Below are positions 28,886 to 60,518 of a stretch of DNA of 64,000 nt, piece by piece (position 1 is the first letter of the stretch; each line of letters starts with the position of its first letter). The notes beneath the pieces are model-generated. The model made no database searches, was not told where the DNA came from, and worked only from the letters and a program-made list of their open reading frames with translations. The position numbers and the translations under genes are program-made. Source of the DNA: an uncultured Gammaproteobacteria bacterium. GTDB taxonomy: Bacteria; Patescibacteriota; Patescibacteriia; Patescibacteriales; UBA12465. The stretch spans positions 273,997 to 337,996 of the forward strand of contig CAYYDR010000001.1 of assembly GCA_964470695.1 (NCBI GenBank). The letters run 5' to 3'.

Positions 28886-29251
28886 ATGAAGAAGTATTTA
28901 TTTGCCTTTATTCTTTCCTTATTAATATTAGCTCCAACCGTGGCCGTCTGGGCTATCCCCGATGTTCCTACCCCATGCTCCGGCAATAACTGCCTTAAAC
29001 TTACTAACCCTCTAAAAGCCAATACCCCACCCGAACTGATAGGCCAGATTATTAATGCTCTTCTAGGCGGAGTTGGTACCCTGGCTCTGGTTATGTTTAT
29101 TTATGGCGGTTTAACCTGGATGACCTCGTCTGGCAGTCAGGAGAAGGTTAAGAAAGGGAAAGACATCGTTGTTTGGGCGGCTATTGGCCTGGTCGTTGTC
29201 TTCTCCGCTTATGCCTTAACCAGATTTGTTCTGGCCACTCTTGTCTCATAA
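28886..29251 (+). CDS. Small secreted/membrane protein with TrbC/VirB2-type (T4SS-pilin-like) architecture
   Basis: 121 aa. Signal peptide (...APTVAVWA), a Cys pair (PCSGNNC), then two C-terminal hydrophobic helices separated by a short basic loop (GTLALVMFIYGGLTWMTSSGSQEKVKKGKDIVVWAAIGLVVVFSAYAL). The pattern matches conjugative-pilin-like small proteins common in CPR genomes (from memory only). Confidence 0.55.
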   Translation: MKKYLFAFILSLLILAPTVAVWAIPDVPTPCSGNNCLKLTNPLKANTPPELIGQIINALLGGVGTLALVMFIYGGLTWMTSSGSQEKVKKGKDIVVWAAIGLVVVFSAYALTRFVLATLVS

Positions 29252-37144: not shown

Positions 37145-37663
37145 ATGAGTAATAAGGTTATCTGTCACAATAGGAAAGGAGAGGAATTTTCGGTTGATAT
37201 TAATAAGTTTTGTTTTCGCCCCTCTGTTTACGGGTTATTGATTAAGGACGGTCGGGTTTTATTATCGCGGCAATGGGATGGCTATGATTTCCCGGGTGGG
37301 GGCATTGATTTGGGCGAGACATTAGAAGGGGCGGTGGTGCGAGAATTTTGGGAGGAAACCGGCTTGAGAGTAAAGCCCATCAGGGTTTTGCATGCAGAAA
37401 CTTCTTTTTATAAGCCGCATCATAGTAATAAGAATGGCCAGGAAACCTATTGGAACTGCCAACTAATTTATTTTGCCGTAGAACTCATAGGCGGAGAATT
37501 ATCAATTGCTAATATTGATGAATTTGAGAAAGAATATTTAGATTTGCCGGAATGGCTGGATATTAATAATCTTGCGGATAAAAAATTTAAAAATAGCCTA
37601 GGGCAGAGAAGCGTTGATTTAATTTTGAAGACAGCTCTTGGCCAATCATATTATGCGGGTTAA
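37145..37663 (+). CDS. Nudix hydrolase
   Basis: 172 aa. Nudix box GGGIDLGETLEGAVVREFWEETGL (G-x5-E-x7-REUxEExGU). Confidence 0.85.
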   Translation: MSNKVICHNRKGEEFSVDINKFCFRPSVYGLLIKDGRVLLSRQWDGYDFPGGGIDLGETLEGAVVREFWEETGLRVKPIRVLHAETSFYKPHHSNKNGQETYWNCQLIYFAVELIGGELSIANIDEFEKEYLDLPEWLDINNLADKKFKNSLGQRSVDLILKTALGQSYYAG

Positions 37664-38327
37664 GTTGCTAGTTGGCTTGACTGGCCATAATGCTCAAGAG
37701 TGTCTGGCTAAAATTGCTGATTTAAAAAATCATAGGATAAAAGAGGCAGCGCTTTTTTTAGAGCAAATTGATAGATCGGGCCGCCGGCAAGTTTACAAAG
37801 CTCTAGAGGCAAGCGGTTTAAAAAAGATTCCTTTAGTTCATTTGCGCCATGATATGTCTCGGGCCGAATTGGTTCTTTTGGCTGAAAAATATCAGACCAA
37901 ATATTTTACTATTCATGAAGATCATTTTGGGATTATAAAACGCTGGCGCGGCTTTTATCAAAATTTATATTTAGAAATGTCTACCGATGACCATGTCGCC
38001 CTGAATGTAAAAGTGGAAAAAATTGGCGGTTTTTGCGTTGATTTAGCTCATTATAAGAAACAGTCCATGATGGATAACCGAGACTTCGCCTATGTTTATA
38101 ACCGTCAGGGTAAGCGCCGCCTGTTTGCCTGTAATCATCTAAACGGCTATGATTATCAAGAGAATAATGATATGCACCGGATCTTTTCCCGTCATAATTT
38201 TCGTTACCTGAAAACTTTGCCGCGCTTCGTGTTCGGCCGTGTTATGGCCCTAGAGACCTATAATACTCTGGCCGAGCAATTAAGCTATAAACAATATTTA
38301 GAAGTTATGTTAAAAGAACTTTATTAG
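37653..38327 (+). CDS. Hypothetical protein (224 aa), His/Asp-rich strand-end motifs, unknown function
   Basis: ATG 37653 overlaps the Nudix stop by 11 nt (TTG 37638 is an alternative). Alternating strand/helix pattern with HLRHD, TIHEDH, VDLAH, CNHLNGY. This suggests a metal-dependent barrel-type enzyme, but I cannot name a family. Confidence 0.55.
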   Translation: MRVKLLVGLTGHNAQECLAKIADLKNHRIKEAALFLEQIDRSGRRQVYKALEASGLKKIPLVHLRHDMSRAELVLLAEKYQTKYFTIHEDHFGIIKRWRGFYQNLYLEMSTDDHVALNVKVEKIGGFCVDLAHYKKQSMMDNRDFAYVYNRQGKRRLFACNHLNGYDYQENNDMHRIFSRHNFRYLKTLPRFVFGRVMALETYNTLAEQLSYKQYLEVMLKELY

Positions 38328-38344: not shown

Positions 38345-39634
38345 ATGTCCTATTCAAATAACCGATTAAATTTAAAGCCCGGCCAGATTGCCGGGTCACT
38401 AGCAATAATGCTGGCCGCTCTTTTTTGGAGTATTGACGGCTTGTTTATTCGGCCGCAATTCTATGTCCTGCCGGCCCAGCTAGTTGTTTTATTGGAGCAT
38501 GCTTTAGGTTTTATAGTTTTAAGCCCGTTTATTTTTGTTTATTGGCCGAAGATTAAATCGCTGAGTTTAAAAAGCTGGCTAGCTTTGGGATGGGTTAGTT
38601 TATTCGGCGGCATGATAGGAACAATATTCATTACTAAAGCTTTTTTCTCGGCCATGGACGGGGAAGTTAGTTTCGCCACAGTTGTTATTTTGCAAAAGCT
38701 GCAGCCGATTTTTGCTTTGCTATTGGCCCGAGTATTATTAAAAGAAAAACTAGACAAGAAATTCTATGTTTGGGCGGCAGTTGCCATTATCGCCAGTTAT
38801 TTTATCGCCTTCGCTAAGACCGGCCTGGATATCTCTAGCATTAATTGGTTATATAGCGGGGCGATATTCGCTTTTATTGCCGCCTTTGCTTTTGGTTCTT
38901 CCACTGTTTTTGGCAAGCGCGCGGCCAATCATCTTGATTATAAGGCGGTTGCCGCTTTGCGCTTCGGCTTAACTTCGCTTTTGGTCCTGATTCTAGTATT
39001 AATAGATGGCTCATTAGGCAGTATTAGCGCAGTAAGTTTAAGGCAATGGGAGCTTTTAGGGTTAATTGTTTTAACGAGCGGCGCCGGAGCCATGTTTGTT
39101 TATTATTTTGGCTTGCGTCGCGTACCGGCTTCGGCCGCGACTGTCCTAGAATTATTTTGGCCCTTTTCGGCTCTAGTGCTTGATTATATTTTTAACCGTA
39201 ATTATCTTAATTGGCAGCAAATGATTGCGTTAGTTATTTTATTGCTCGCTTTTTACAGAATTTCTATCTTAGGTAGTTTGAAAAAAATAAATTTTTCCGG
39301 GCGAGTTATCCGCGGCCAGGGGCGAGGCAAGGGGCTCGGCTATCCGACCGCTAATTTAGATAAGGTTGATTTAGATATCCCGCACGGCATTTACGCCGTT
39401 AGAGCCAGGTTAGATAATAAGGCTTATCTCGGTTTAATGCATTTTGGCTTTAAAGATGTTTTTCGGGAAGATGTTTCTTTGGAAGTTTTACTCAAAGATT
39501 TTTCCGGCGATATTTACGGCGAAAAATTAGAAGTTGAGGTTCTAGAAAAAATTAGGGAAGTGAAGAAATTTTCTAGCCCTTATCTTTTAGCGGAGGAAAT
39601 TAAGAAAGACCTGGAAATACTTAAGAAGTTCTAG
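38345..39634 (+). CDS. Fusion protein: EamA/DMT-superfamily permease (N-terminal approximately 310 aa) + riboflavin kinase domain (C-terminal approximately 115 aa)
   Basis: 429 aa. The N-terminal part has 10 hydrophobic helices in two EamA-like halves. The C-terminal GRVIRGQGRGKGLGYPTANL...GIYAV...GLMHFG...LEV.LLDFSGDIYGEKLEVEVLEKIREVKKFSS matches the RibF riboflavin-kinase domain pattern. Confidence 0.8.
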   Translation: MSYSNNRLNLKPGQIAGSLAIMLAALFWSIDGLFIRPQFYVLPAQLVVLLEHALGFIVLSPFIFVYWPKIKSLSLKSWLALGWVSLFGGMIGTIFITKAFFSAMDGEVSFATVVILQKLQPIFALLLARVLLKEKLDKKFYVWAAVAIIASYFIAFAKTGLDISSINWLYSGAIFAFIAAFAFGSSTVFGKRAANHLDYKAVAALRFGLTSLLVLILVLIDGSLGSISAVSLRQWELLGLIVLTSGAGAMFVYYFGLRRVPASAATVLELFWPFSALVLDYIFNRNYLNWQQMIALVILLLAFYRISILGSLKKINFSGRVIRGQGRGKGLGYPTANLDKVDLDIPHGIYAVRARLDNKAYLGLMHFGFKDVFREDVSLEVLLKDFSGDIYGEKLEVEVLEKIREVKKFSSPYLLAEEIKKDLEILKKF

Positions 39635-39657: not shown

Positions 39658-39682
39658 AAAACGAGGCTAAGCCTCGTTTTTT
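39658..39682. terminator. Bidirectional terminator hairpin
   Basis: ACGAGGC-TAA-GCCTCGT stem-loop flanked by an A-run and T6. Confidence 0.75.
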
Positions 39683-39699
39683 AGTTGATTTGAAATAAT

Positions 39700-40241: not shown

Positions 40242-40305
40242 ATAGAATTATTAGTTGGCAAATGTTTGTTAAGAGTTTTTGCTCAAATTAATAATAATTC
40301 TATTT

Positions 40306-42183
40306 ATGTCTCATAATAAATATCTAAAACTACCTATTAAGGGCATGCACTGCGCTTCTTGTGAATTGCTTGTAGAAGAAAAGCTTAAGGAGGTTCCGCA
40401 TGTTCAATCGGTAGAAGTAAATCATAAGACTGGTGAGGCTATCATATATCATGACTATGCTGTGCCCTCTATGGCTCATCTTGATAAAGCAATTAAGGAC
40501 TCCGGCTATTCAATCGGCGAGTCAGATAAGTTGCCTCTTTTAACGCGCGACAGAAAAGAATACGCCAGCCTGGGGGTCGCCTTTCTATTTTTAATGGCCG
40601 CTTATTTGGTTTTCAAGGGACTGGGTTTAACCGATATTAGTATTGCTACCGATCTCAGCAGCCCAAGCTGGGGTTTAATTATAATAATTGGGTTGGTTGC
40701 GGGGTTCTCTACTTGTATGGCTCTGGTGGGCGGGTTATCCTTGGGACTCTCTACTAAATTTGCCGAGAGCCACCCTACCGCGACGCCGACGGAAAAATTT
40801 AGACCTCATATTTATTTCGTAATTGGCCGCATCTTATCTTATGCTACTTTAGGCGGAGTTTTAGGCGCTTTAGGCACGATATTTCAACTCTCTTCTGCCG
40901 CCAACGCTGCCTTAACTATACTAATAGGAATTGTTATGCTTATTATGGGTTTGCAGCTCATTAATATTTTTCCTCGTTTGAATAAATTTAAATTGGCTAT
41001 ACCTAAAGGAATTGCTAAAGCCCTAGGAATTAGCCAGAAAAATAAGGAGTATAGTCCGGAGCGGGCTATGCTCATGGGGGCTTTAACTTTTTTCTTGCCT
41101 TGCGGATTTACACAGGCCATGCAACTTTACGCGATTAGTAGCGGCAATTTCGCGTTTGGCATGATGGTAATGGGCCTGTTTGCCCTAGGAACCGCTCCTG
41201 GTTTATTAAGTGTCGGCGGCGTTACTTCTTTAGTCCGTGGTCAATTTAAGGAGCGATTTTTTAAAGTCGCCGGCCTAGCGGTTATATTTTTTGCTTTGTT
41301 TAATTTAAATAATGGCTACACTTTAGCCAGTTTAAGTGTGGTGGGGTTGACTGGTAGTAATTTTGGTTCTGAAAAAGTTATTAATGATCCAAACGTAATT
41401 ATGGAGAATGGGATACAGATAGTACGCATGATAGAGAGTAACCGAGGCTATACGCCTAATAAATTTTCAATTAAAAAAGATGTTCCGGTTAAATGGATAA
41501 TTGATGCTCAGGCGCCATATTCTTGTGCTAGTTCCATTGTTGTTCCTGGCTTGAATATTCAGAAGAGTTTAGAGGCAGGAGAAAATATAATTGAATTTAT
41601 TCCTAAGGAAGTGGGGAAATTAGCATTCTCTTGTTCTATGGGTATGTATACAGGAGTCTTTAATGTTTATGATGAAAATGATTCAGTGGGTAATGGCTCA
41701 GTAACGTCAGATAGTAATGACGCTAGCCCAATCGTTAAAAGTCCTAAAGGAACTTGTGGTTCTGGGGGCGGCGGAGGAGGCGGTTGTGGCGGAGGGGGAA
41801 GTGCTGGTGGTGGTTGCGGCGGAGGAGGAGGCGGAGGTTGTGGTGGTTGCGGAGGGGGCGCTAAAATTAAAACAAACACAGTTGATACGCCCGCTGATAA
41901 TCAAGGTGGCGTTCAGGTTATTAAAACCAGTTATACCCAGTCCGCCGATATTCAGCCTAATAGTTTTACGGTTAAAGCCGGTAAGCCAGTTCGCTTTGAA
42001 ATAGAAGCCAAGGAAGATGGTGCTGGCTGTATGGGCGCGATTGAGGTTCAGACTTTATCGGAAGGGCCGCAAGATTTAGTGGCCGGCAAAACCATTGTTA
42101 TGGAATTTATACCTACGACGCCCGGTAGTTATCTAATTACATGTGCCATGGGCATGCCGCGGGGGACTATAAAAGTGCAATAA
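40306..42183 (+). CDS. HMA domain + CcdA/DsbD_2-like transmembrane domain + two cupredoxin-like domains separated by a Gly/Cys tract; possible membrane copper-tolerance protein
   Basis: Start at ATG 40306 (MSHNKYLKLPIKGMHCASCE = HMA MxCxxC). TM core with GFSTCMALVGG and FFLPCGFTQAMQ. First C-terminal domain carries YSCAS...FSCSMGMY. Then GTCGSGGGGGGGCGGGGSAGGGCGGGGGGGCGGCGGG. The second domain carries GCMG...ITCAMGM. Confidence 0.75.
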   Translation: MSHNKYLKLPIKGMHCASCELLVEEKLKEVPHVQSVEVNHKTGEAIIYHDYAVPSMAHLDKAIKDSGYSIGESDKLPLLTRDRKEYASLGVAFLFLMAAYLVFKGLGLTDISIATDLSSPSWGLIIIIGLVAGFSTCMALVGGLSLGLSTKFAESHPTATPTEKFRPHIYFVIGRILSYATLGGVLGALGTIFQLSSAANAALTILIGIVMLIMGLQLINIFPRLNKFKLAIPKGIAKALGISQKNKEYSPERAMLMGALTFFLPCGFTQAMQLYAISSGNFAFGMMVMGLFALGTAPGLLSVGGVTSLVRGQFKERFFKVAGLAVIFFALFNLNNGYTLASLSVVGLTGSNFGSEKVINDPNVIMENGIQIVRMIESNRGYTPNKFSIKKDVPVKWIIDAQAPYSCASSIVVPGLNIQKSLEAGENIIEFIPKEVGKLAFSCSMGMYTGVFNVYDENDSVGNGSVTSDSNDASPIVKSPKGTCGSGGGGGGGCGGGGSAGGGCGGGGGGGCGGCGGGAKIKTNTVDTPADNQGGVQVIKTSYTQSADIQPNSFTVKAGKPVRFEIEAKEDGAGCMGAIEVQTLSEGPQDLVAGKTIVMEFIPTTPGSYLITCAMGMPRGTIKVQ

Positions 42184-42201
42184 TAATTAATTAAGAATTA
42201 C

Positions 42202-42408
42202 ATGAATAATATTAATTTTAAGTTAGCTGGCTTAACTTGTGAAGCTTGTCTTAAATTAGTCTCGCGGAAGTTAAAAAAAATTCCCGGCGTGACAAGCGTG
42301 AAAGTTGATTTAGCGTCTGGTGAAACCCAAGTTACTAGTTCGGGCAAAATCGATTTAGAGATTTTGCGAAAAAGCTTAGAGAATACGCATTATTCAATAG
42401 TTAAATAA
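42202..42408 (+). CDS. copZ: Copper chaperone (single HMA domain)
   Basis: 68 aa. LTCEAC metal-binding motif in a ferredoxin-like HMA fold pattern. Lies between the membrane protein and copA. Confidence 0.8.
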
Positions 42409-42412
42409 TTAT

Positions 42413-45400
42413 ATGAGCCAAAAAATAAAATTGAAAATAGAGGGCATGCATTGCTCATCTTGCGAAACAATTATTAAGGAGGAGGTGTCTGAGTTACCGG
42501 GAGTTAGCGACATTTCCGTTAGTTCTAAAACTGGCACAGCGGAATTGGTTTTAGACGAGTCAAAAAACAATACGGAGGATATTCTTAAGGCAGTTAAAGA
42601 AGCTGGTTATGAGGCGATTGTTCAGTCGGACGTATCTTTAGAGGGCAAAAAAAATATGGAGATTAGACAGCCAGAAATTATTATCTCCGGCAGTCAAGCT
42701 CGGGGCAGCGAACCTTTGAAAATTCAATTGGAAATTAAAGTTTCAGTTGATAGTGGTCACAACAGCGCACAGGCCGTAAAGGACAATAAACTAATGACGG
42801 TTATTGAAGGTGATAGTTTTATTCAAAACACTAGTCAGGCGGCCGACACAAATTTGAGTCAGAATAATAATTTAAGTCAAAATTCCAACCAACGAACTAA
42901 TTTGTCCCTTTTTGGCATGCACTGCTCATCGTGCGCTAATATTATTGAGCGGTCTCTTAAGAAAGTCCCAGGCGTCAAACTGGCTAATGTTAATTTTGCT
43001 GCTGAAAAAGCGTCGGTTATATATGATGAATCTCAAGTTAAGACTCAAAGTTTAATTGAAGCTATTTCTAAAGCTGGCTATAAAGCGGAAGTGGTGGATC
43101 CCAAGGATACCGACTATGATAGAAAGAAGCGGGAAAAAGAAACTAAATCGTACTTTGGAAAGTTTTGGTTTAGTTTTGTTCTTAGTTTACCAATGCTTTA
43201 TTTCATGCTTCTAGATTTTTTTGCTATTCCAGGCAAAGCTTTAGTTCTGCCATTTGTCGGTGTTATTTCACTGGTTCTAACTGCGCCGATTCAGTTCTTT
43301 ATTGGAGCGGGGTTTTATAAGGGTTTTTGGTCATCACTAAAAATGAAAACCTTTAATATGGATAGCCTGATCGCGATTGGCACTTCAACTGCTTTCATTT
43401 ATAGTTTAGTTAATTTTATAAATTACTTTATAAAAACTAAATCAGTTATTGGCTTAAGTGGTAAAATTCCGGAATTATATTTTGAAACAGCTGCTTTCTT
43501 AATTACTTTTGTAATTTTAGGAAAATGGCTGGAGATTCGCACTAAAGGGAAGACGGGTGACGCTATTAAAAAGTTAATGGGACTACAGGCAAAAACCGCT
43601 CGCATTATCAGAAACGGCTCAGTTATTGATATCCCGGTTGATGAAGTGGTCCGTGGCGACGTTGTTATTGTCCGCCCCGGAGAGAAAATTCCGGTTGATG
43701 GAAAAATAACGAAAGGGTCGTCAGCGATTGATGAATCAATGATTACCGGCGAGAGCTTGCCGGTTGAAAAAAAAGTTGGCGATTTAGTAATTGGCAGTAC
43801 CGTTAACAAAACCGGTAGTTTTGAGTTTGAGGCAACCAGGGTAGGTAATGAAACAGCTTTAGCGCAAATTATCCGTTTAGTAGAAGATGCGCAAGGGTCA
43901 AAGGCGCCGATTCAGGGGTTTGCGGATAAGATTTCGGCGGTCTTTGTGCCGACCGTTATTGGCATTGCCATTATTACTTTCTTGATTTGGTATTTTTTAC
44001 TAGGAGCAACATTATCTTTCGCTTTAATGGCTTTCACGGCCGTCATTGTTATCGCTTGTCCCTGCGCTTTAGGGCTAGCTACGCCAACGGCACTTATGGT
44101 TGGCACTGGCAAAGGGGCGGAATATGGAATTTTAGTAAAAGGGGGCGAGCCGCTGGAAGCAGCTTGCCATATTAATGCGGTTGTTTTTGATAAGACCGGC
44201 ACCCTTACTAAAGGTAAGCCGGAAGTAACTGATATTATTCCTTTTGCGAGTTTAGATGAAGATGAGATATTAGAGATATCCGCTAGTTTAGAAAAATTAT
44301 CCGAGCATCCGTTAGCAGAAGCGATTTATACTTACGCCAATGAAGAGTCTATTAGTCTAAAGGAAGCGAAAAATTTTTCCGCCATCCCCGGTCATGGCGT
44401 TAAAGGAATAATAAATGATATAGAATATTATTTTGGTAATCGCCGTTTAATGGCCGAAGTACTTAATCATTCAATTGATAAAATTAATCGCAAGTTGGCT
44501 AAATTAGAAGAACAGGGGAAGACAACAATGATTTTGGCGACTAAAGATGAAATATTGGGTGCTATTGCGGTAGCGGACACAGTTAAGCCAACTTCGTCGG
44601 ATGCGGTCGCTAAATTAAAGAAGCTAGGCGTCGCAGTTTATATGATAACCGGTGATAATGAACGAACGGCCCGCGCTATTGCGGTTCAGGTGGGAATTGA
44701 AAATGTTTTAGCGGAAGTTTTGCCGGAGGATAAGGCTAACGAAGTGAAAAAGTTGCAGCAGAATAATTATAAGGTAGCGATGGTTGGCGATGGTATTAAT
44801 GACGCCCCGGCTTTAGCGCAAGCTGATTTAGGTATTGCCATGGGTTCTGGTACTGACGTGGCCATGGAAACCGGCGGCATCGTTATTATGAAAAATGATT
44901 TGAGCGATGTGGTAACTGCCCTGCAATTATCACGTGAGACTATGAGCAAGATAAAACAGAATATGTTTTTTGCTTTATTCTATAATGTCATTGGCATTCC
45001 GATTGCCGCCCGTATTTTTACTAAATATGGTTTAGTGCTAAAGCCGGAATTGGCCGGATTAGCGATGGCCTTTAGTTCAATTTCGGTCGTTGGCAATTCT
45101 TTGCTCTTACGCTACTTTAAGCCGAATAAGAGAAATTATTTATCATTAATTGCTCCGGTCATTATGGTTTTAGTTTTCACTTTTGGTTTCTTTGAGTTTG
45201 CTAAATTAAGTTCGGGCATGGAAAACCAGGACATGAATGTGGTTGTCTCTGTGGAAAGTGCCTCAACTATTAACACCTTTATAGCCAACGGCGAAACTAA
45301 GATTAATTTTGGCGATGGAGATCCTAAATTATTTTTAGGCGCCGACAGCTTGCCGGGCTTACTAAAAATTAGTGAGGGAGTTTTGACCCTTGGTAATGAT

Positions 45401-45910
45401 GAGATGATAATCGGTTATGATGAGGCAATGATGATGAAAAAGGAAAATTTGATTAAGGGACCGGGCGATAGTTTAACTAACTTCTTTGGTCTACCGAGTG
45501 TAAAAATAGTTGGCATTTTAGAGCCAACTGGGACTTTGGTTGATAATTATCACTTTGTTAATAAGAATACTCTTGTTAAGATGACTAGCGCTGCCCTAGT
45601 TAGATATGTAGCTGAGAAAGAAATTATTAAGAGTTTCTACTTTGACACAGCCACTAATACCCCCGATAAATTAAAGAACGATATTAAAGACTTTGATCAA
45701 ATTAATTTAGGTGATAAGAAATACCTGCCGATTTATATTGGTTTTAGTGAAGCTAAAATGATGATAGAGGCCAAGTTAATTAGTAAAGTTGGTGATACTA
45801 TTGATAATTTTTTTGGTAATAATGTAATGATAGCGGGAATTTTACCTGAAACAAAAACAACCTTAGATATGATGCATTATGTAGGGCCAGATTTTGTTGT
45901 AAAAAACTAG
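42413..45910 (+). CDS. copA: Copper-translocating P1B-type ATPase with two N-terminal HMA domains and a approximately 260-aa C-terminal extension
   Basis: 1165 aa. GMHCSSC twice, [35 protein letters not shown]. After the usual last TM (...LLRYFKP) comes one extra TM ([21 protein letters not shown]) and a approximately 235-aa domain with an internal duplication. Confidence 0.9.
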
Positions 45911-46543: not shown

Positions 46544-47770
46544 ATGAAATATGATTTAGCGGTAATCGGCGGCGGTCCGGCCGGCTTAATGGCGGCGCTT
46601 AAAGCTAGCGAGTTAGGCTATAAAGTCGTCCTGCTTGAGAAGAATCAGCGTTTGGGGATTAAGCTGCTCATGACAGGCGGCGGGCGTTGTAATATTACTA
46701 ATAATATTCCGGATTATAGATTGTTAGCTTCAAGCTTTGGCCCATCGGGACGTTTTTTATTATCAGCTTTTAGTCGCTTCGGCGCGCCTGAAACTATTGA
46801 ATTTTTTGAAAGTCGCGGGCTAAAGACCAAAATAGAAAAAGTTAATCAGGTTTTCCCGGCGAGCGATAGAGCGGCTGACGTTTTAGAAATTTTAATTAAG
46901 GGGATTGAAGATTCGGGCGGCCTTATTATGAATAATAGCCCAGTCCAAAAAATTATTTTAGAGAAAAAAACCATTTCTAAGCTTATTATGATGAGCGGCC
47001 AAGAAATATCGGCGGCTAATTATTTAATTGCGACCGGCGGCTTATCATACCCTTCAACCGGCTCTACGGGCGATGGCTATAAATGGTTGCGAGAATTGGG
47101 GCACACTATTAAGTCCTTGCGTCCGGCCCTAACGCCGATTTTAGTGAAAGAAAGATTTGTTAAAGATTTAGAAGGCTTAAGTTTGGAAAATGTTTCTCTG
47201 CGGCTATACTATAAAAATAAAAAGATTGCTCAAGAGGTCGGCCCCATGATTTTTACTTCAGTCGGTTTAAGCGGTCCGGCGGTTTTAAATATTAGCCGCC
47301 AAATTGATCTCAGCGCCGGGCGTGATTATCATTTAGAGATTGACTTGCAGCCGCAGTCCTCTGAAGATAATTTAGTTAAAAATTTAGAAAAAATTTTAGC
47401 CGGAAATAATCGGTTGCTGAAGAATATTTTAGAAGGCCTAGTTTCGCCGCGTTTAGCTGAAATAATAATTACTTTGTCTGGACTGGATTCTAATCTGATC
47501 GGGAATTCTTTTAACCGTTTAGAGCGAGAGAGTCTGGTTAAAATTATAAAATCTTGGCGTTTTCATGTTAATTCGGTTGAAGATTATAGTCGGGCCATGG
47601 TTACGGCCGGTGGCGTTGATTTAAAAGAAATAAATTCCAGCACCATGCGCTCTAAAATAATTTCTAATTTATTTATCGCTGGCGAAATATTAGATTTAAC
47701 TGGACCAACCGGCGGTTATAATTTGCAATTATGTTGGAGTACCGGCCATCTCGCCGGATTTATGCTATAA
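46544..47770 (+). CDS. HI0933-like / aminoacetone-oxidase-family FAD-dependent flavoprotein
   Basis: 408 aa. DLAVIGGGPAGLMAA dinucleotide-binding motif and GGGRCNITN, characteristic of the HI0933 family. Confidence 0.85.
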   Translation: MKYDLAVIGGGPAGLMAALKASELGYKVVLLEKNQRLGIKLLMTGGGRCNITNNIPDYRLLASSFGPSGRFLLSAFSRFGAPETIEFFESRGLKTKIEKVNQVFPASDRAADVLEILIKGIEDSGGLIMNNSPVQKIILEKKTISKLIMMSGQEISAANYLIATGGLSYPSTGSTGDGYKWLRELGHTIKSLRPALTPILVKERFVKDLEGLSLENVSLRLYYKNKKIAQEVGPMIFTSVGLSGPAVLNISRQIDLSAGRDYHLEIDLQPQSSEDNLVKNLEKILAGNNRLLKNILEGLVSPRLAEIIITLSGLDSNLIGNSFNRLERESLVKIIKSWRFHVNSVEDYSRAMVTAGGVDLKEINSSTMRSKIISNLFIAGEILDLTGPTGGYNLQLCWSTGHLAGFML

Positions 47771-51803: not shown

Positions 51804-53192
51804 TTATTTTTCTTCTATTACCTTAATATTGCCAGTATACATGCCCATAGAGCAAGAGAAGGGAATATCACCTATTGTGCTAGGAGTAAATTCAATAATA
51901 TTTTCCCCCTTCTTCATAAACTTTTGGATTTTTAGAGAAGGAACAATAAGGGCGCTAGCGCAAGAATAGGGGGCTTGTGCATCAATAACCCAGCGAACCG
52001 GCCGCCCTTTAATAACTGTGAATTGATTTGGGGAATAACCGCGATTTGTTTCAATCATATTGATTATTTGGACCCTATTATTTTCTAAATCAGAATTATT
52101 TTTATTTGTCTGTTCATCCAAACTAGAATTATTTTCGGTAACCAATATTCCGCCCGTTGTTAGACTTATTAATTTAAAACCGTTCTGTAAATTAAATATA
52201 GCGAAAAGGATAACAATCCCGCCGGCTAGCTTAAAGAACCAGCGAGATTTTTTCTGGCTGACCAGAGAAACTATGCCGCCTATTCCTAATAAGCCAGGCA
52301 GAGTACCGATCGCGAAAAGAGCCATAGTCAGGCCGCCGTTTATAAAGCTGCCGCTATTTAAAGCATATATTTGCATGGCTTGAGTAAAGCCGCAGGGCAG
52401 GAAAAAAGTTAGAGCTCCGAGAATAATCGGGTTATTAGCTTTTATTTTTCCGCCTAATTTTTTTGGCAGAGAAAAATCTAATTTATTCAGAGCTGAAGAG
52501 ACATCTAAAAGTTTTAGTCCTAATATTAAGACAACTAATCCGACCACGACAGTCAGGATGCCATTAAAGAAAGATGATAGCTTAAAAGTCTGTCCGGCTA
52601 GACCTAAGACGCCGCCTAAGACGAAAAAACCTAAGACACGGCCCAGATTAAATAAAAGGTGGGGCTGAAATTTTTGAAAACGACTGGCTTCGGGATGATC
52701 TTTGGCGTAGCTCGCTGATAAGCTAAAGACTAGGCCTCCGACTAAGGCCAGGCAGGTTGAGAAGCCGGCTACTAGTCCGACTAAGGCCGCTAGTGATAAT
52801 GAGAACTCTCCTTTTAGCAATCCGCTAGCGTCGCCTAAAGGCAATTTTCCTATTAACCAGTAAGCTAAAATCAGGGAGAGAATGATGAGCGGCCAGTTAG
52901 CTTTTTTATTTTGAGATGGTAAATCACAATCAGGGGTGCCATTTAATTTTACCCCTTCTTCGTTTTCAGAATTCTTTATTTCGCCTTTAAATTTATAGCC
53001 GCCGTCTTCTATGGCTTGCTTAATTATTGCTAAATTTGGTTTGTCGCCTCGGTAAGATATTTCCGCTACTCCGTCGCGATGGTTAACGTTGACTGAAGTG
53101 ATATTAGGTAACTCGCCTAAATTTTGTTCATTTAATATTTCGCAAGCCTTGCAATGTAGGCCGCCGATGCGGACACTAATTTTTTTTGTCAT
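51804..53192 (-). CDS. HMA domain + CcdA/DsbD_2-like transmembrane domain + one cupredoxin-like domain (paralogue of 40306-42183)
   Basis: 462 aa from ATG 53192 (MTKKISVRIGGLHCKACE); the track start at 53204 is an alternative. Same GFSTCLALVGG, FFLPCGFTQAMQ and YSCAS...FSCSMGMY motifs as the paralogue. Confidence 0.75.
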   Translation of the reverse strand: MTKKISVRIGGLHCKACEILNEQNLGELPNITSVNVNHRDGVAEISYRGDKPNLAIIKQAIEDGGYKFKGEIKNSENEEGVKLNGTPDCDLPSQNKKANWPLIILSLILAYWLIGKLPLGDASGLLKGEFSLSLAALVGLVAGFSTCLALVGGLVFSLSASYAKDHPEASRFQKFQPHLLFNLGRVLGFFVLGGVLGLAGQTFKLSSFFNGILTVVVGLVVLILGLKLLDVSSALNKLDFSLPKKLGGKIKANNPIILGALTFFLPCGFTQAMQIYALNSGSFINGGLTMALFAIGTLPGLLGIGGIVSLVSQKKSRWFFKLAGGIVILFAIFNLQNGFKLISLTTGGILVTENNSSLDEQTNKNNSDLENNRVQIINMIETNRGYSPNQFTVIKGRPVRWVIDAQAPYSCASALIVPSLKIQKFMKKGENIIEFTPSTIGDIPFSCSMGMYTGNIKVIEEK

Positions 53193-53254
53193 ATATAAAA
53201 GCAACTTACCGGATTAGCATTAATCTAGTTTTGCCGCTGATAATTTTTGTAATT

Positions 53255-53527
53255 TTATTTAGAGGCTAACTTATTTACTTTTAATATTTCATCAACCATG
53301 CGCGCCTTGAGTTTTTCGTTCTTGGAGGCCATAGCATTTTTAAAACAGCTATTAAGATGACCAGCTAAGAGCATTTGGTGGGCTGATTTAAGGAGACCGA
53401 TAACAGCAAGGTTCTGCTGCATAATATCAATGCAGTATTCACCTTCTTCGGTCATTTGGATTATTTTTTCGGTTAAACTCTTGGCCTTTTTAAGATTAGT
53501 CAGGATGTCTTGTTTGTCTCTAGTCAT
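53255..53527 (-). CDS. csoR: CsoR/RcnR-family metal-sensing transcriptional repressor
   Basis: 90 aa. Helical DUF156-type pattern with candidate ligand residues C (EGEYCIDIMQQ), H (SAHQML) and C (HLNSCF) in the x-C-H-C arrangement. Confidence 0.8.
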   Translation of the reverse strand: MTRDKQDILTNLKKAKSLTEKIIQMTEEGEYCIDIMQQNLAVIGLLKSAHQMLLAGHLNSCFKNAMASKNEKLKARMVDEILKVNKLASK

Positions 53528-53550
53528 ATTTTTTAAAAATTATTATACCT

Positions 53551-53569
53551 ATACCCCAGGTGTTAGTAT
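53551..53569. promoter_or_regulatory. Candidate CsoR operator in the csoR promoter (ATACCCCAGGTGTTAGTAT)
   Basis: TACC-CCA-GGTG pseudo-palindrome inside ATAC...GTAT arms. On the minus strand it lies just upstream of TATAAT (53547-53542). It shares ACCCCAGGT with 39743-39751. Confidence 0.45.
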
Positions 53570-53714
53570 TAAGAATTATAGCAAGACTAACTGGCCGAGT
53601 CAATTAGCCGATTACCTTGCCTTTTTTCGGCTAATTTGCGATACTTCTATTAAGATGGTCGCCAGTTTAGGAATTTAAATAGCCACCATATATAATATAT
53701 TTTGTTAAATTCAT

Positions 53715-54464
53715 ATGTCTCTTTATCTTTATATTTTCGGTAGTGTTTTTTTAGTTTCCATCCTATCTCTTTTAGGAGTTCTTTTTTTGTCTTTTTCTAA
53801 AGAATGGCTCCAAAAAATTATTTTTTTATTAGTCAGTGTTTCGGCCGGAGCTTTGATTGGCGACGCCTTTCTTCATTTATTGCCGGAAATGGCGCGCGAT
53901 AGTCAGGATGGAATAGGCGCTTGGCTTTGGGTGATAGGGGGCTTGATGGTATTTTTTGTCTTAGAAAAAATTATCCATTGGCGCCATTGCCATATTACGA
54001 CTGGCCCCGATCATCCCCATCCTCTAGGCATTATGAATTTAGTTGGCGATGCCTTGCATAATTTTTTTGATGGCGTGATTATCGCTGGTTCCTTTGTGGT
54101 CAGTATTCCTCTAGGCATTTCCACTTTGGTGGCCGTAGTGGCTCATGAGATTCCGCATGAAATTGGTAATTTCGGGATTTTAGTTTATGCGGGCTATTCC
54201 AGAGGTAGGGCCATACTTTTAAATTTTCTTTCCGCCTTAGTGGCGATGCTCGGCGCTTTGGCAGCGGTTGTTTTTGCGGCTAGCCTAACTAATTTTACAA
54301 ATTTTATTATTCCGTTTACCGCCGGCGGCTTTATTTATATCGCGACGGCCGATCTAATTCCCGAGATGAAGAAAGAGACCGGAGCGGGCAAATCAATTTT
54401 GCAGCTACTCTGTATATTAATTGGTATCGCCATTATGCTCGCCTTAAGATATATTTTTGAATAG
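53715..54464 (+). CDS. zupT: ZIP-family divalent metal transporter (ZupT-like)
   Basis: 249 aa. HEIPHEIGNF signature in TM5 region and a His-rich loop (HWRHCHITTGPDHPHP). Confidence 0.85.
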   Translation: MSLYLYIFGSVFLVSILSLLGVLFLSFSKEWLQKIIFLLVSVSAGALIGDAFLHLLPEMARDSQDGIGAWLWVIGGLMVFFVLEKIIHWRHCHITTGPDHPHPLGIMNLVGDALHNFFDGVIIAGSFVVSIPLGISTLVAVVAHEIPHEIGNFGILVYAGYSRGRAILLNFLSALVAMLGALAAVVFAASLTNFTNFIIPFTAGGFIYIATADLIPEMKKETGAGKSILQLLCILIGIAIMLALRYIFE

Positions 54465-54490
54465 GGAAGACATTTATTAGTTTTACTTAT

Positions 54491-54518
54491 AAAAAAGAGT
54501 CAAGAATGGCTCTTTTTT
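54491..54518 (+). terminator. Rho-independent terminator
   Basis: AGAGTC-AAGAAT-GGCTCT hairpin flanked by A6 and T6 runs. Confidence 0.7.
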
Positions 54519-54534
54519 CTTTAATTTTAGCTGG

Positions 54535-54573
54535 TTGACAATAATATAGTTAATTGATAAACTATATTATTGT
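54535..54573 (+). promoter_or_regulatory. TTGACA -35 box overlapped by a 14-bp perfect inverted repeat (candidate MarR operator)
   Basis: ACAATAATATAGTT (54538-54551), N8, AACTATATTATTGT (54560-54573). TTGACA at 54535-54540. Lies 30 nt upstream of the MarR-family gene. Confidence 0.6.
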
Positions 54574-54602
54574 TTTATCATCGCCTTTAATTTTAAGAAA
54601 TT

Positions 54603-55103
54603 ATGGCCCTTAAAGAAAAAAAATTTAATTATCAGGAGTTAAGCGTGCCGAGTTTAATCGGTTTAACTTCTTTGCGCCTAGAAGCGATTGCTGATCGTCT
54701 TATTTTTAAGCCGCTTAAATTAACCTCGGCTAGCTTCCGTATCTTGGCTGTAATCGGCGAGCTTGGGGAAATCGCGCCTAAAGAAATTTTAAGTTATTTG
54801 GGCGGCACTAAATCTAACCTTACCCAGCGTCTTAATTATTTAAGCCGCCTGTCTCTAGTAAAAATAAAAAAATCAGACTCTGGCGACCGGCGTCAGATTA
54901 AAATATCTTTGACCAAGCAAGGGCAGGCTAGTTTATCTAAAATAAAGGCCAGCATTGACCATAATCAGCTGCATTTGGAAAAATTTTTTACCGCTCTTGA
55001 GCTGAAAAGTTTTTTATCATTCATTATTAAATTAAATAAGAAATTGGACGCCTGTGGCGGACATAGTATGGAAATTTGTAAAAATAAATCATGCCAAATA
55101 TGA
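54603..55103 (+). CDS. MarR-family transcriptional regulator
   Basis: 166 aa. Winged-helix region (LTSASFRILAVIGELGEIAPKEILSYLGGTKSNLTQRLNYLSRLSLVKIKKSDSGDRRQIKISLT). Cys/His-containing C-terminal tail (ACGGHSMEICKNKSC). Confidence 0.75.
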   Translation: MALKEKKFNYQELSVPSLIGLTSLRLEAIADRLIFKPLKLTSASFRILAVIGELGEIAPKEILSYLGGTKSNLTQRLNYLSRLSLVKIKKSDSGDRRQIKISLTKQGQASLSKIKASIDHNQLHLEKFFTALELKSFLSFIIKLNKKLDACGGHSMEICKNKSCQI

Positions 55104-57007
55104 AAATGCCAAAATTATCTCTCGGTTTATTATTAATTTTGTTAACGTTAACTTTAAGCGCTTGCGGTTCGCCAACCGCGGAAGTCGCTGTTCCGCCTCA
55201 ACCCCTGGCGGTTAAAGGACAAACAGCTGGCGCTAGTTTTAGCGTTAAGCAAAATTTGTCATATCCCGGTTTAGTGGTTGCTGATAGCGAAGCGACTGTT
55301 AGCGCTAAGTCCAGCGGCAATTTAACGGCGGCTAATTTTAAAGTTGGCGATAAGGTGTCTTTAGGCCAGGAAATTGCCAAGATTGATGATGTTAATTCCG
55401 CCTCTTTTAATTCGGCTAATTTTAACACCAATCAAATTAAGCAGGCTAAAATAATCGTATCGCAAGCAGAGGCGGCCTATAATTTAGCTCGGACAAATTA
55501 TAATAATATCTTGATTTCGGCGGTTAAAGATTTGCGGAGCGCGGAGATTTCCCGCGACCAAGCGGCTAAGGGGCAAAGTAATTTAGATATTACGACTGCC
55601 GAAAGCCTGAAGAGCGCGGAGTTAGCTTACGAAACCGCGCAGATTGCGACCGAACAAGCTAAGACGACTTTAGCTAATCGGGAAAAATTAGCGGTCCAAA
55701 GTTCTCAAGATGCTTCTACTAACGCCGACTTAGCAGCTAGCTCGGTAGTTAGCGCGGCTGGCTCGGTTATTACTAATATTAATAATTTAGCCGCTTTTGA
55801 TGATAATAATATTGTTTCTATCAGTTACCGTTCTAATTTAGGGGCTTTAGACAGCAAATCTTATGATATAGCCGAAGAGGCTTATAAAAAAGCCAAAAAT
55901 ATTTATGTAGATTATGGCGCTAAAAAATTAACAGCTGTCAGCGAGAAGGTGGAAGGAGCAATTATAGTAGCTAACGCTGCTAAAGCCGCCGCCGATGCTA
56001 CTAAAGATTTATTAGATAAAACAATTTCTTCCAGTGCTTTGCCGCAGAGTTCTGTTTCCGGTCCGTCTCTATCAGGGCTGCAGGCTGCGGTGGCTGGTTA
56101 TCAGGCGCAAATGAATGCCGCGGTTAGTCAAATTAATGGCGCTAAGCAAGGACTGGGAAATATTGATTTGAATAATTCTACCCTGCTTGATAGTTTGCGC
56201 CAGGCTTATAAAATTGCGCAGCAGCAAGAGGCCAGTGCTAAACAGAATTTAGCTAATTTAAAATCCGGCAATACTAGCCAGCAGAATCAGGCTGGGTTTG
56301 TATCTAATTTAGCCCAGAATCAATATGATAATGCTAAAGTTAAAATTGAATCACAGGTTAACGCGGCTAGGACGCAGATGGAAACAGCCAATCTCCAGTA
56401 TAGTAATGCCATTGTAGCTTTGCAGAGTTTATATGACGCTCATTCTGTAATTTCTCCGATTGACGGCACGATTACTAAAGTTTTTATTACTGACGGCCAA
56501 TCTGTTGCCCCCGGCCAGCCGATTGTGACTATTTCCCAAATTCAAAATATCAAAGTCCAGTTTTATGTTGAGGCTGATAATCTGGCCGATATTAAGCCGG
56601 GCCTACCAGTTAAAGTTGTAAACAGTGATAATATCAGTTATACGGGCGTTGTTTCCGCTATTTCGCCGCAAGCCGATCCAATGACTAGGCGTTTTTTAGC
56701 GGAGGTGAAATTAGAAAATCCCGAGGGCCTGCTTTTGGGTACGGTGGCGACTGTTAATTTAGAGATAACCAAGGGGACGGCTTCGGCGGGCGTAATAATT
56801 CTGCCCCTGTCGGCCGTGACTGTCGGCCAGAATGGCAATTATATTTTTATTGCTGAAAATAATCAGGCTAAAAAAGTAGAGGTTACTATTAAAGAGGTGA
56901 TGGGCGAATTAGCTCAGATTAAGGCTGATTTGCCGGCTAGTGCTTTTATTATTACGGAAGGAAATCGCTTATTGCAAGAAGGCCAGGCTGTTTCTATTAC
57001 CCAATAA
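55091..57007 (+). CDS. Efflux RND periplasmic adaptor (MFP/HlyD family) lipoprotein with very long coiled-coil hairpin
   Basis: 638 aa. Lipobox LTLSAC. Split lipoyl-like halves (FKVGDKVSLGQEIAKID ... ISPIDGTITKVFITDGQSVAPGQPIVTI) are separated by about 330 aa of A/Q/N/S-rich helical sequence. C-terminal beta-barrel/MPD-like region. Confidence 0.8.
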   Translation: MPNMKMPKLSLGLLLILLTLTLSACGSPTAEVAVPPQPLAVKGQTAGASFSVKQNLSYPGLVVADSEATVSAKSSGNLTAANFKVGDKVSLGQEIAKIDDVNSASFNSANFNTNQIKQAKIIVSQAEAAYNLARTNYNNILISAVKDLRSAEISRDQAAKGQSNLDITTAESLKSAELAYETAQIATEQAKTTLANREKLAVQSSQDASTNADLAASSVVSAAGSVITNINNLAAFDDNNIVSISYRSNLGALDSKSYDIAEEAYKKAKNIYVDYGAKKLTAVSEKVEGAIIVANAAKAAADATKDLLDKTISSSALPQSSVSGPSLSGLQAAVAGYQAQMNAAVSQINGAKQGLGNIDLNNSTLLDSLRQAYKIAQQQEASAKQNLANLKSGNTSQQNQAGFVSNLAQNQYDNAKVKIESQVNAARTQMETANLQYSNAIVALQSLYDAHSVISPIDGTITKVFITDGQSVAPGQPIVTISQIQNIKVQFYVEADNLADIKPGLPVKVVNSDNISYTGVVSAISPQADPMTRRFLAEVKLENPEGLLLGTVATVNLEITKGTASAGVIILPLSAVTVGQNGNYIFIAENNQAKKVEVTIKEVMGELAQIKADLPASAFIITEGNRLLQEGQAVSITQ

Positions 57008-57011
57008 GCAT

Positions 57012-60000: not shown

Positions 60001-60518
60001 GCGAAAATGAGCAGAATGCTGAATCAGTTAAATCAATACTCCGAGCGATGATTGTGGCTTTTTTCTTGATTATTTCTACTCTTATTATTCAATTTAATTC
60101 TTTCCGCCAAGCGTCTATCGTTTTGGTAACTATCCCGCTGGCACTTATCGGCGTTTTCTTCGGACTCGCGATGGTACGTCTGCCTTTATCATTCCCAGGT
60201 CTTATCGGTATTCTTGCCTTGTGCGGCATCGTTGTTAAGAACGCGATTATTCTAATGGATAAAATAAATCTTAATTTAAAAAGCGGCATTCCTTTTAAAG
60301 AGTCAATTATTGATGCTGGCAAGTCGCGTTTAGAAGCCATATTTATCACTTCCATTTGTACCATTCTCGGCATTATCCCGATTACGATGTCTAATGAAAC
60401 TTGGCGGGCACTAGGCGGCTCAATTATTTTCGGCCTGATGCTTTCCTCATTCTTAACCTTATTTATTGTGCCGACCATGTTTATGTCTTTCATTAAGGAT
60501 AAAAAGAGGTATAATTAA
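57012..60518 (+). CDS. RND-superfamily efflux permease (AcrB/CzcA-like)
   Basis: 1168 aa from ATG 57012, 4 nt after the adaptor stop. Two-fold repeat of TM bundles and large loops. LLVDDAIVV motif in TM4. N-terminal approximately 75-aa extension and a charged approximately 80-aa insert mid-protein. Confidence 0.85.
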   Translation: MNIHINHNQPEPKISMPVETMAEKFSPAGSTPPAPNANSSANKTSDHLYLERLEFRPELRKSFINFFIVNFRVVILLILILTGAGIYSFSVLPRESNPEVKIPIAVVMTVYPGASPADIEELVTKKLETGISGVKNIDKITSNSSNSVSAITVEFDSKANLDDSIRSLRDAVNNAKVNLPSAVNEPLVKEISLDDSPILTMALSGPYDGFVLRQAGDQIKDELEKIPGVREVKISGGNEREFTINYDPQKLSFYNLSPAQANQKIASVNLAIPAGTFEGREYSYPVRADGRFFTTQVLANTPIIHTDSGAIIYLKDIAEVKDAAIKKTVYSRLSSGGQAAADDVTLQIIKKTGGNIINTVDEVKKKTEIELGKLPAGLHYDTTVDMSQQIVKDFNQLTHDFTLTIILVFTILFLIVGLKEALVAGLAVPLVFFATFAVMLWTGISLNFLSLFSLILALGLLVDDAIVVVSATKQYLRTGKFTPEEAVLLVLNDFKVVLLTTTLTTVWAFLPLLMSTGIIGEFIKSIPITVSVTLISSLIIALIINHPLAAVLERIRMTRNFFFSLSGLILALAIILSVFGGIVGIMFGLALLGVVVVLINWYRQGGRRKLEANAVLMDREWADDNLIKHKLREQGRHDHEDFYHRLLHGIVRFDVFLPIYEKYLRILLATKKSRRLTLAIVAGLFLVAMALPISGIVQSQFFPPSDSTMVNITLEGPAGLKLDETDKIVRRVEEKLYKYPEIVNFTTIVGNGGSASSFSSGSNSSNLASFTLKLKESADRELRSYELADKINADLAEIKEATVKAEAPKGGPPSGADFQAQISGEDLQTLDKIARELEVTLKSLPEVSKTDISLKDSPADYTFTLDPARLELYDLNAAYVGSTLRLAISGTEVTKVVINGKEVKVLAKFAPDKIPSLEAIQNLQILNTKNQPIFLKDVAKIELKPSVATITRIDQRRTVLLTASLKGGSNASLVVAEFQKKTKSYNFPSGYEIGYGGENEQNAESVKSILRAMIVAFFLIISTLIIQFNSFRQASIVLVTIPLALIGVFFGLAMVRLPLSFPGLIGILALCGIVVKNAIILMDKINLNLKSGIPFKESIIDAGKSRLEAIFITSICTILGIIPITMSNETWRALGGSIIFGLMLSSFLTLFIVPTMFMSFIKDKKRYN

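Follow-up and report, generated by a model that had tools for sequence, protein, structure and literature searches.

A DMT/EamA permease fused to a riboflavin kinase in Patescibacteria: a probable riboflavin uptake-and-trapping protein

Architecture of the permease-kinase gene

The 64-kb stretch of contig CAYYDR010000001.1 analyzed here (GenBank assembly GCA_964470695.1, positions 273,997 to 337,996), referred to as the window and used as the scale for all coordinates of the open reading frame (ORF), carries a gene that joins a membrane permease of the DMT/EamA (drug/metabolite transporter) superfamily to a C-terminal riboflavin kinase (RFK). An earlier note on this DNA had described a single ORF of 429 amino acids (aa) at this position and had proposed that its product imports riboflavin and traps it by phosphorylation. 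The ORF list and Pfam agree with this description, as both domains were matched above their cut-offs. Two stretches of EamA (PF00892) score 104.9 bits (E 5e-30) against a cut-off of 28.2, and residues 314-428 match positions 4-122 of the 124-position Flavokinase profile (PF01687) with 102.2 bits (E 3e-29) against a cut-off of 19.6. The motifs that had been listed for the kinase half (GRVIRGQGRGKGLGYPTANL, GIYAV, MHFG, and LEVLLKDFSGDIYGEKLEVEVLEKIREVKKF) were all found in the translation. The parts of the gene are the following:

38345..39634, + strand: permease-kinase ORF, 429 aa, ATG start, stop codon included (ORF list, Pfam)
38345..39271, + strand: EamA/DMT permease module, residues 1-309, 10 transmembrane (TM) helices, N-in/C-in (PF00892, AlphaFold2 (AF2), Foldseek)
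Residues 12-39, 44-65, 75-104, 110-131, 138-156, 171-196, 199-221, 232-257, 262-284, and 290-309: TM helices (AF2)
39272..39286, + strand: linker between TM10 and the kinase barrel, residues 310-314, ~5 residues (AF2, junction conservation)
39284..39628, + strand: riboflavin kinase module, PF01687, residues 314-428 (Pfam, RFK alignments, Foldseek)
39344..39355, + strand: PTAN motif P334-T335-A336-N337, codons ccg acc gct aat (RFK active site)
39482..39484, + strand: codon of E380, which corresponds to the catalytic-base Glu in RFK modules (alignment to CaFADS 5A88)

The AF2 model of the fusion was built with 40 homologues (pLDDT 85.1, pTM 0.83) and contains ten TM helices, the last of which ends at about residue 309, while the kinase β-barrel begins at residue 315. 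According to Pfam and NCBIfam, residues 1-310 are EamA, and the flavin mononucleotide (FMN) adenylyltransferase (FMNAT) half, a PF06574-type N-terminal module, is absent. The NCBIfam RibF models match the window protein only via the C-terminal ~115 positions (77 bits vs. a cut-off of 241 bits), and an identity as bifunctional RibF or type I flavin adenine dinucleotide (FAD) synthetase is ruled out by the missing FMN adenylyltransferase module. No substrate-specific EamA model of NCBIfam matches the window protein, and one entry of the protein collection (P0001) is 100% identical to it.

Recurrence of the fusion across genomes

Relatives of the window protein are encoded by 251 species representatives in GTDB, 80 of whose loci were fetched. 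In 72 of these the match spans the whole query; the others are truncated at a contig end, are fragments or hold the permease alone. All but one of the full-span loci (71/72) contain one intact ORF of 413-463 aa with 43-81% identity to the window protein. The closed 977-kb Falkowbacteria chromosome CP066698.1 is among the loci with an intact fusion ORF. Both domains were also found in all 120 best database relatives (~377-451 aa long), which stem from independent NCBI, JGI, ENA, and Logan assemblies, and fusions were traceable down to ~34% identity in an exhaustive search of species representatives. The junction region keeps its length within ±2 residues in 72 of the 74 full-length fusions over which conservation was counted. 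The possibility of a frameshift or assembly join at ~39270-39290, which the earlier note had wanted to see checked, is answered by the recurrence in independent assemblies and the fixed junction length: there is none.

The fusion recurs in the ultra-small bacteria of the Candidate Phyla Radiation (CPR), nearly all carriers being Patescibacteria by their record titles (Falkowbacteria, Parcubacteria, Magasanikbacteria, Nomurabacteria, Moraniibacteria, and Roizmanbacteria), and the names under which its relatives are public (“EamA family transporter”, “DMT-like permease”) conceal the kinase half. Many of the relatives’ contigs with CPR-like neighbours are titled “uncultured Gammaproteobacteria bacterium” (TPA assemblies), a label that seems to be a placeholder or incorrect. 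Three loci (L027, L030, and L073) are titled archaeal yet carry the bacterial-type fusion, and their neighbours are common to the CPR-like L029, so that their taxonomy is uncertain; in all four, the fusion is surrounded by arrays in which four to eight paralogous proteins of ~420-500 aa (neighbour cluster 8) stand in tandem.

Kinase module

The window protein carries the Gly-rich loop, the PTAN motif, GxY, the catalytic Glu, and the conserved Arg of the RFK family, in which the function of PTAN is well established. Residues G324, G328, G332, T335, G348, Y350, E380, and R404 are each present in 74/74 fusions and N337 in 71/74, and the RFK catalytic residues including E380 are also kept in all 16 most divergent fusions. 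In the alignment, E380 falls on the Glu of “SVE” in the RFK module of Corynebacterium ammoniagenes FAD synthetase (CaFADS, 5A88), which we take to be E268 of that enzyme. The domain aligns end to end with Thermotoga maritima RibF 1MRZ (E 3.5e-16) as well as with the CaFADS and human RFK modules, and a Foldseek search of the kinase half returned human RFK 1Q9S (target TM-score (TMt) 0.71, root-mean-square deviation 1.9 Å) and the CaFADS RFK module 5A8A (TMt 0.67). The C-terminal domain is a genuine member of the PF01687 riboflavin kinase family, and it presumably acts as an active, ATP-dependent enzyme that converts riboflavin to FMN.

Together with the RFK modules of RibF (T. maritima TM379 1MRZ, C. 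ammoniagenes FADS 2X0K/5A88) and the eukaryotic RFK (1NB0/1Q9S), the window kinase belongs to the β-barrel proteins of PF01687, with matching positions of PTAN, GxY, Glu, and Arg. In contrast to RibF, it lacks the FMNAT module and is tethered to the cytoplasmic end of a 10-TM permease, and the FMNAT step in fusion lineages is apparently carried out by a separate, archaeal-type RibL-like enzyme. The membrane half has 15 Lys and Arg residues on the cytoplasmic side (even-numbered loops and termini) vs. three on the odd-numbered loops; as the positive-inside rule gives an N-in/C-in topology, the kinase is predicted to lie in the cytoplasm, where ATP is found.

In two loci a tandem second permease-kinase paralogue, ~50% identical to the first, was observed (L050:7242-8519 and L058:7268-8569). 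Here, PTAN is replaced by FNTADL and the Gly-rich loop is altered (GGNSG), changes that may reflect another nucleotide or flavin specificity or a weakened kinase.

Permease module

The permease half is a bona fide 10-TM EamA/DMT protein with two five-helix repeats. Its fold is common to the solved DMT structures YddG (5I20; TMt 0.78 in the Foldseek search with the membrane half), the choline importer LicB (7PAF; TMt 0.79), and the triose-phosphate translocator (5Y78), the TMt values lying within 0.65-0.79; these proteins differ from the window permease in sequence (16-19% identity), in their substrates, and in having no fused enzyme. Mean identity among the fusions is higher in the permease half (64.5%) than in the kinase half (53%), and the polar residues S29, R36, T97, Q117, K118, Q120, E134, K191, R206, Y254, S263, E269, and D280 are found in 74/74 fusions. 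Since constraint is stronger on the permease half than on the kinase, and the former holds invariant polar residues within the membrane, the permease half is predicted to be a working transporter rather than a mere membrane anchor.

Standalone permeases of ~300 aa with the same signature (LLQKLQP, GSSTVFGK, LRF, ELxWP, and the Gln of TM10) also exist and are interleaved with the fusions in a neighbour-joining tree. Two of them (L167:6001-6912 and L168:5981-6916) are located in genomes that read UGA as a sense codon, where glycine at UGA (code 25) restores LFGGxLGT and YYxGL, while the database copies show W at these positions. The code-25 genomes encountered carry the standalone permease only.

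Linkage to an unrelated riboflavin kinase in archaea

The strongest evidence on the cargo of the permease comes from the archaeal side. In 4/4 DPANN loci examined, a gene for an RbkR-type protein, i.e., a helix-turn-helix (HTH) domain with a CTP-dependent riboflavin kinase of PF01982, lies directly before a standalone permease that is 36-39% identical to the window permease. In L166 (Micrarchaeota) the upstream RbkR-type gene overlaps the permease gene by 14 nt and encodes a full-length PF01982 domain (139 bits) with an N-terminal HTH, while in L173 (Aenigmarchaeota), L174 (Woesearchaeota), and L175 (Aenigmatarchaeota) the rbkR-permease pair is overlapping or 5 nt apart. The RbkR genes of the four loci are 34-66% identical pairwise, and their flanking genes differ.

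A second kind of fusion was found in a 428-aa protein (P0142), in which EamA (114 bits) gives way to PF01982 (101.7 bits) at residue 315, matching the junction of the window protein. It is encoded on two contigs, each from a different sample; an archaeal RNase P subunit gene is also present on one of them. Its permease aligns with the window permease without gaps (39% identity, E 1e-69), and its kinase matches the archaeal riboflavin kinase structures 3CTA/5TRD and MJ0056 while having no significant similarity to the window kinase (E 0.07). Judging by these matches, the permease subfamily was fused independently, in P0142, to an archaeal riboflavin kinase that is not homologous to the bacterial one. 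Across two domains of life, one permease subfamily is thus connected with two non-orthologous riboflavin kinases, either within one protein or through overlapping genes, and because the only thing common to both kinases is their substrate, riboflavin is indicated as the cargo.

Bacterial gene neighbourhoods

Clustering of the neighbouring genes revealed, in eight of the GTDB loci, a RibL-like PF01467 gene (127-155 aa) on the same strand 0-86 nt upstream of the fusion. The product (PF01467, 54 bits) has the HxGH motif, with GTFDxLHPGH conserved; NCBI calls it and its relatives “FAD synthase”, while JGI uses “FAD synthetase”. Among PDB entries it is most similar to 3GLV, an archaeal protein of 143 aa (E 3.9e-25), which we take to be a RibL orthologue. 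We therefore assign the neighbour, from its motifs and matches, as a putative RibL-type FMN adenylyltransferase / FAD synthase, RibL being the FMN adenylyltransferase of Archaea (PMC11423594, PMC5397151).

As the eight loci share one synteny block, a reverse search was performed starting from RibL-like genes, in which 80 RibL-like loci were obtained from metagenome contigs, 54 of them informative. A permease gene follows downstream of the RibL-like gene in 7/54, five of these with the kinase half inside the contig. In L093:4001-4760, the same slot contains RibL and then a standalone RFK of 125 aa (PF01687, 90.6 bits) that begins within RibL (11-nt overlap). In L090:1235-1834 it contains RibL together with a degenerate kinase remnant, while L078:5962-6879 and L070:924-1859 hold only the permease, with a clean stop after TM10. 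One syntenic slot was thereby observed in four states (RibL with permease-RFK, RibL with RFK, RibL with a kinase remnant, and permease only), which points to separate gain and loss of the modules. Since the standalone RFK and the remnant share the RibL slot, the kinase half belongs to the pathway from riboflavin to FMN and FAD, with or without the permease.

Two further neighbours were discarded as flavin partners. The PF01467 gene beside the permease of L167 had looked like a second case of RibL; its retranslation with code 25 shows GRFQPFHxGH, a pattern like that of nicotinamide mononucleotide adenylyltransferases. The gene upstream in L169 and L170 is the C-terminus of BipA and is uninformative.

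Downstream of the fusion (+1), an HI0933-like FAD flavoprotein (neighbour cluster 11) directly follows in eight related loci, including the closed genome L007. A gene of this kind is also present in the window, separated from the fusion by a copper-resistance cassette:

46544..47770, + strand: HI0933-like FAD flavoprotein gene (PF03486, 273 bits), context only

The association between fusion and flavoprotein is weak. Genes of riboflavin synthesis (ribA/B/D/E/H) and a separate FMNAT, the former of which the earlier note had proposed to check for absence and the latter for presence, were both absent from the 64-kb window.

Proposed uptake and trapping of riboflavin

We consider it likely that the gene encodes a DMT/EamA riboflavin uptake permease with a built-in, ATP-dependent trapping kinase. 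Riboflavin would enter through the 10-TM permease, and on the cytoplasmic face of the membrane the tethered kinase would convert it to FMN. As the charged FMN could not leave through the permease, the inward gradient would persist (metabolic trapping), and a separate, archaeal-type RibL-like FAD synthase would then adenylylate FMN to FAD. This import-and-trap idea, already put forward in the earlier note, has gained support from the adjacent RibL gene and the standalone RFK in the same slot, as well as from the rbkR-permease pairs of all four DPANN loci and the P0142 fusion. Riboflavin is, by genomic linkage, very likely the substrate; an inward direction, the energy coupling (facilitated diffusion or H+), and any direct hand-over of the substrate between the domains are what we infer in addition. 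A need for such uptake is suggested by the gene complement of Parcubacteria, which are reported to keep the FAD-dependent enzymes MurB and TrxB while having no riboflavin synthesis, no ribK/L/F, and neither transporters nor riboswitches (PMC4508563), and by the FAD flavoprotein gene that recurs beside the fusion. The absence of riboflavin synthesis from Parcubacteria-type genomes is also reported in PMC5220378.

Several points weigh against this interpretation. The window holds neither RibL nor any other flavin gene beside the fusion, and the RibL adjacency in the eight GTDB loci, being one synteny block, may go back to a single ancestral event. The kinase is not obligatory for permease function, as standalone permeases interleave with the fusions, and the standalone bacterial relatives L082, L083, and L176 have no adjacent flavin genes in the context examined. 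The FMN riboswitch, a classic marker of bacterial riboflavin transporters, is absent from the window at the Rfam gathering threshold; it was found in none of 13 related loci scanned with Rfam, including standalone-permease loci and, at E ≤ 0.1, four loci with long upstream gaps, and a core-motif regular expression gave 0 hits in 889 kb. The median gap upstream of the fusion is only 53 nt. The fold cannot give the direction of transport, since the DMT superfamily includes exporters such as YddG. In addition, some CPR lineages, e.g., Gracilibacteria, make riboflavin (PMC9166423), so flavin capability does vary across the radiation.

A bolder version of the uptake-and-trapping model, which we regard as possible though doubtful, would make the permease-kinase a true machine for vectorial phosphorylation, i.e., a vitamin group translocator driven by ATP (by CTP in the archaea), in which riboflavin passes directly from the inward-facing cavity to the tethered active site and transport is gated by catalysis, and which evolved twice. 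If so, two unrelated kinase folds would have been placed on one permease scaffold in the ultra-small symbionts of CPR and DPANN, and the missing entry point of their flavin cofactor metabolism would have been found.

Among the alternatives to riboflavin uptake, the one that fares best, though we regard it as improbable, holds that the permease carries another metabolite, with the kinase domain serving either as a flavin-sensing module that gates transport by FMN status or as a mere membrane-anchored kinase. RFK domains have indeed been recruited for regulation elsewhere, RbkR being both kinase and regulator (PMC5397151), and neither the lack of a substrate-specific NCBIfam match, nor the lack of an FMN riboswitch in the window and the loci scanned, nor the standalone permeases that have no adjacent flavin gene would be surprising under such a function. 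Catalytic residues invariant in 74/74 fusions, however, fit an enzyme better than a sensor, and the linkage of the permease to two non-homologous riboflavin kinases and to RibL is hard to explain unless riboflavin is the cargo.

Very improbable, in our assessment, is a flavin exporter, whose kinase would supply FMN at the membrane to be secreted via the DMT channel, for instance to shuttle electrons outside the cell or to serve as a public good. The sequence gives no direction, and YddG, the closest solved bacterial DMT structure, is an exporter. An internal use of the product is suggested, however, by the link with RibL (the FMN-to-FAD step) and with a FAD flavoprotein of the cytoplasm. Moreover, the carriers are genome-reduced Patescibacteria and DPANN, with Parcubacteria-type genomes reported to have no riboflavin synthesis (PMC4508563, PMC5220378), and the archaeal RbkR-linked transporter genes have been interpreted as uptake systems in vitamin B2 auxotrophs (PMC5397151). 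The notion of an artefact, in which sequencing error, frameshift or chimeric assembly joined a permease gene to an adjacent gene for a small monofunctional RFK, can point to standalone permeases (L070, L078) and a standalone RFK (L093) in related genomes, but these forms stop cleanly with no remnant left, and because the fusion recurs across many independent assemblies and projects (71/72 full-span loci, a closed chromosome, 43-81% identity, conserved linker length) we reject it with near certainty.

Comparison with known transport systems

The logic of the proposed uptake and trapping of riboflavin is shared by Pnu-type facilitators that work with cytoplasmic trapping kinases (PnuX/RibM with RibF, and PnuC with NadR), where a passive or weakly coupled entry of a vitamin is made effectively one-way by intracellular phosphorylation. 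The Pnu proteins have another fold, and transporter and kinase are separate polypeptides, whereas in the window fusion the two are covalently joined via a short linker of fixed length. A comparison with the phosphotransferase system (PTS), drawn in the earlier note, stands as a conceptual analogy only, namely the coupling of uptake to phosphorylation of the cargo: no PTS domains are present in the fusion or in the neighbouring genes. The fusion operates without EI, HPr, EII or a phosphoenolpyruvate phosphorelay and has a different fold and a soluble-type ATP kinase domain, whose phosphorylation step is not known to be required for translocation.

RibN is reportedly a DMT-type permease and resembles the window permease in being of the secondary-carrier type, a proposed or shown riboflavin importer, and probably a member of the same superfamily. 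It has been reported only from alpha- and gamma-Proteobacteria, with an FMN riboswitch in the alpha-Proteobacteria and no kinase domain (PMC4418817); rescue of a riboflavin auxotroph or uptake of labelled riboflavin has been the usual assay for RibM, RibN, and RibZ (PMC4418817). Measured against this description of RibN, the window permease was not filed under RibN, as its family occurs in Patescibacteria and DPANN, has no riboswitch that could be found, and is fused to or in operons with kinases. ImpX, which the earlier note had placed in the DMT/EamA superfamily, is instead described as a distant homologue of RFT2/SLC52 with a conserved FMN riboswitch (PMC4418817). An assignment to ImpX was likewise rejected on the basis of this description, the window protein being EamA/DMT by both Pfam and fold and no riboswitch having been found.

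In Archaea, the RbkR regulon includes the predicted riboflavin transporters RibU (energy-coupling factor type) and RibT (major facilitator superfamily type), in a study that covered no DPANN genomes (PMC5397151). The archaeal relatives of the window permease lie in rbkR-transporter units, the same genomic logic that predicted RibT; they differ from RibU and RibT in belonging to the DMT/EamA superfamily, and in P0142 the kinase is fused rather than adjacent.

In a full-text search, with most subscription journals outside its scope, neither of the two fusions nor any riboflavin transporter of the DMT type in CPR or DPANN was found to have been described, which is absence of evidence only. From its domains and linkage, the protein probably represents a new riboflavin uptake permease family within DMT/EamA with a built-in kinase. 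In the lineages that carry them, fusion and RibL would offer a concrete answer to the FAD puzzle of Parcubacteria raised by Nelson and Stegen (PMC4508563). Because the annotation names hide the family, automated metabolic reconstructions can be expected to miss both the uptake and the kinase step. That one permease scaffold became fused convergently to two riboflavin kinases of unrelated origin would also be a clear natural example of selection for transporter-enzyme coupling. The model predicts that riboflavin, rather than FMN or FAD, is the form to supply when culturing the carriers, and the gene could serve as a compact single-gene module of uptake and activation for engineering the uptake of flavins or roseoflavin.

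Other features of the window and related loci

Two further features border the fusion gene:

37638-38327, + strand: 229-aa ORF that overlaps the NUDIX gene at the latter's end and stops 18 nt short of the fusion
39658..39683, + strand: intrinsic-terminator-like hairpin with a 10-bp stem, a 3-nt loop, and a U-run, ~25 nt past the stop codon

The 229-aa ORF has no Pfam or PDB sequence match and lies beside the fusion in no other examined locus. It was rejected as a partner together with the upstream NUDIX gene, as the two are not conserved beside the fusion and gave no flavin-specific Pfam or PDB match. The hairpin has a folding energy of -16.6 kcal/mol (z -4.72), with 0/200 shuffles folding equally well, and was not listed by a consensus scan.

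In one CPR clade (L033-L048 and L078), a conserved block lies downstream of the fusion, beginning with a ~500-aa unknown protein; genes of PrgI-like, TraC-like, and other types follow, and the block resembles an apparatus for type IV secretion or a conjugation-like one. A type IV secretion system pilin-like protein is encoded elsewhere in the window (28886-29251). At 4875-7511 (-) and 8052-10727 (+) it contains divergently oriented ClpB-like AAA+ genes, the latter of which has no Clp_N domain and a divergent first ATPase module.

The window is also rich in metal-homeostasis genes at 40279-45910 and 51804-60518. Between the fusion and the flavoprotein gene are located an HMA-DsbD_2-cupredoxin fusion protein, which includes a long low-complexity tract of Gly and Cys, and a CopA-like P-type ATPase carrying two HMA domains. 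Another HMA-DsbD-cupredoxin paralogue (51804-53204, -) lies further along, as do a ZIP transporter, a MarR regulator, and an HlyD/AcrB-like efflux pair that gave an HMA hit. This region looks like an inserted or mobile copper-resistance cassette.

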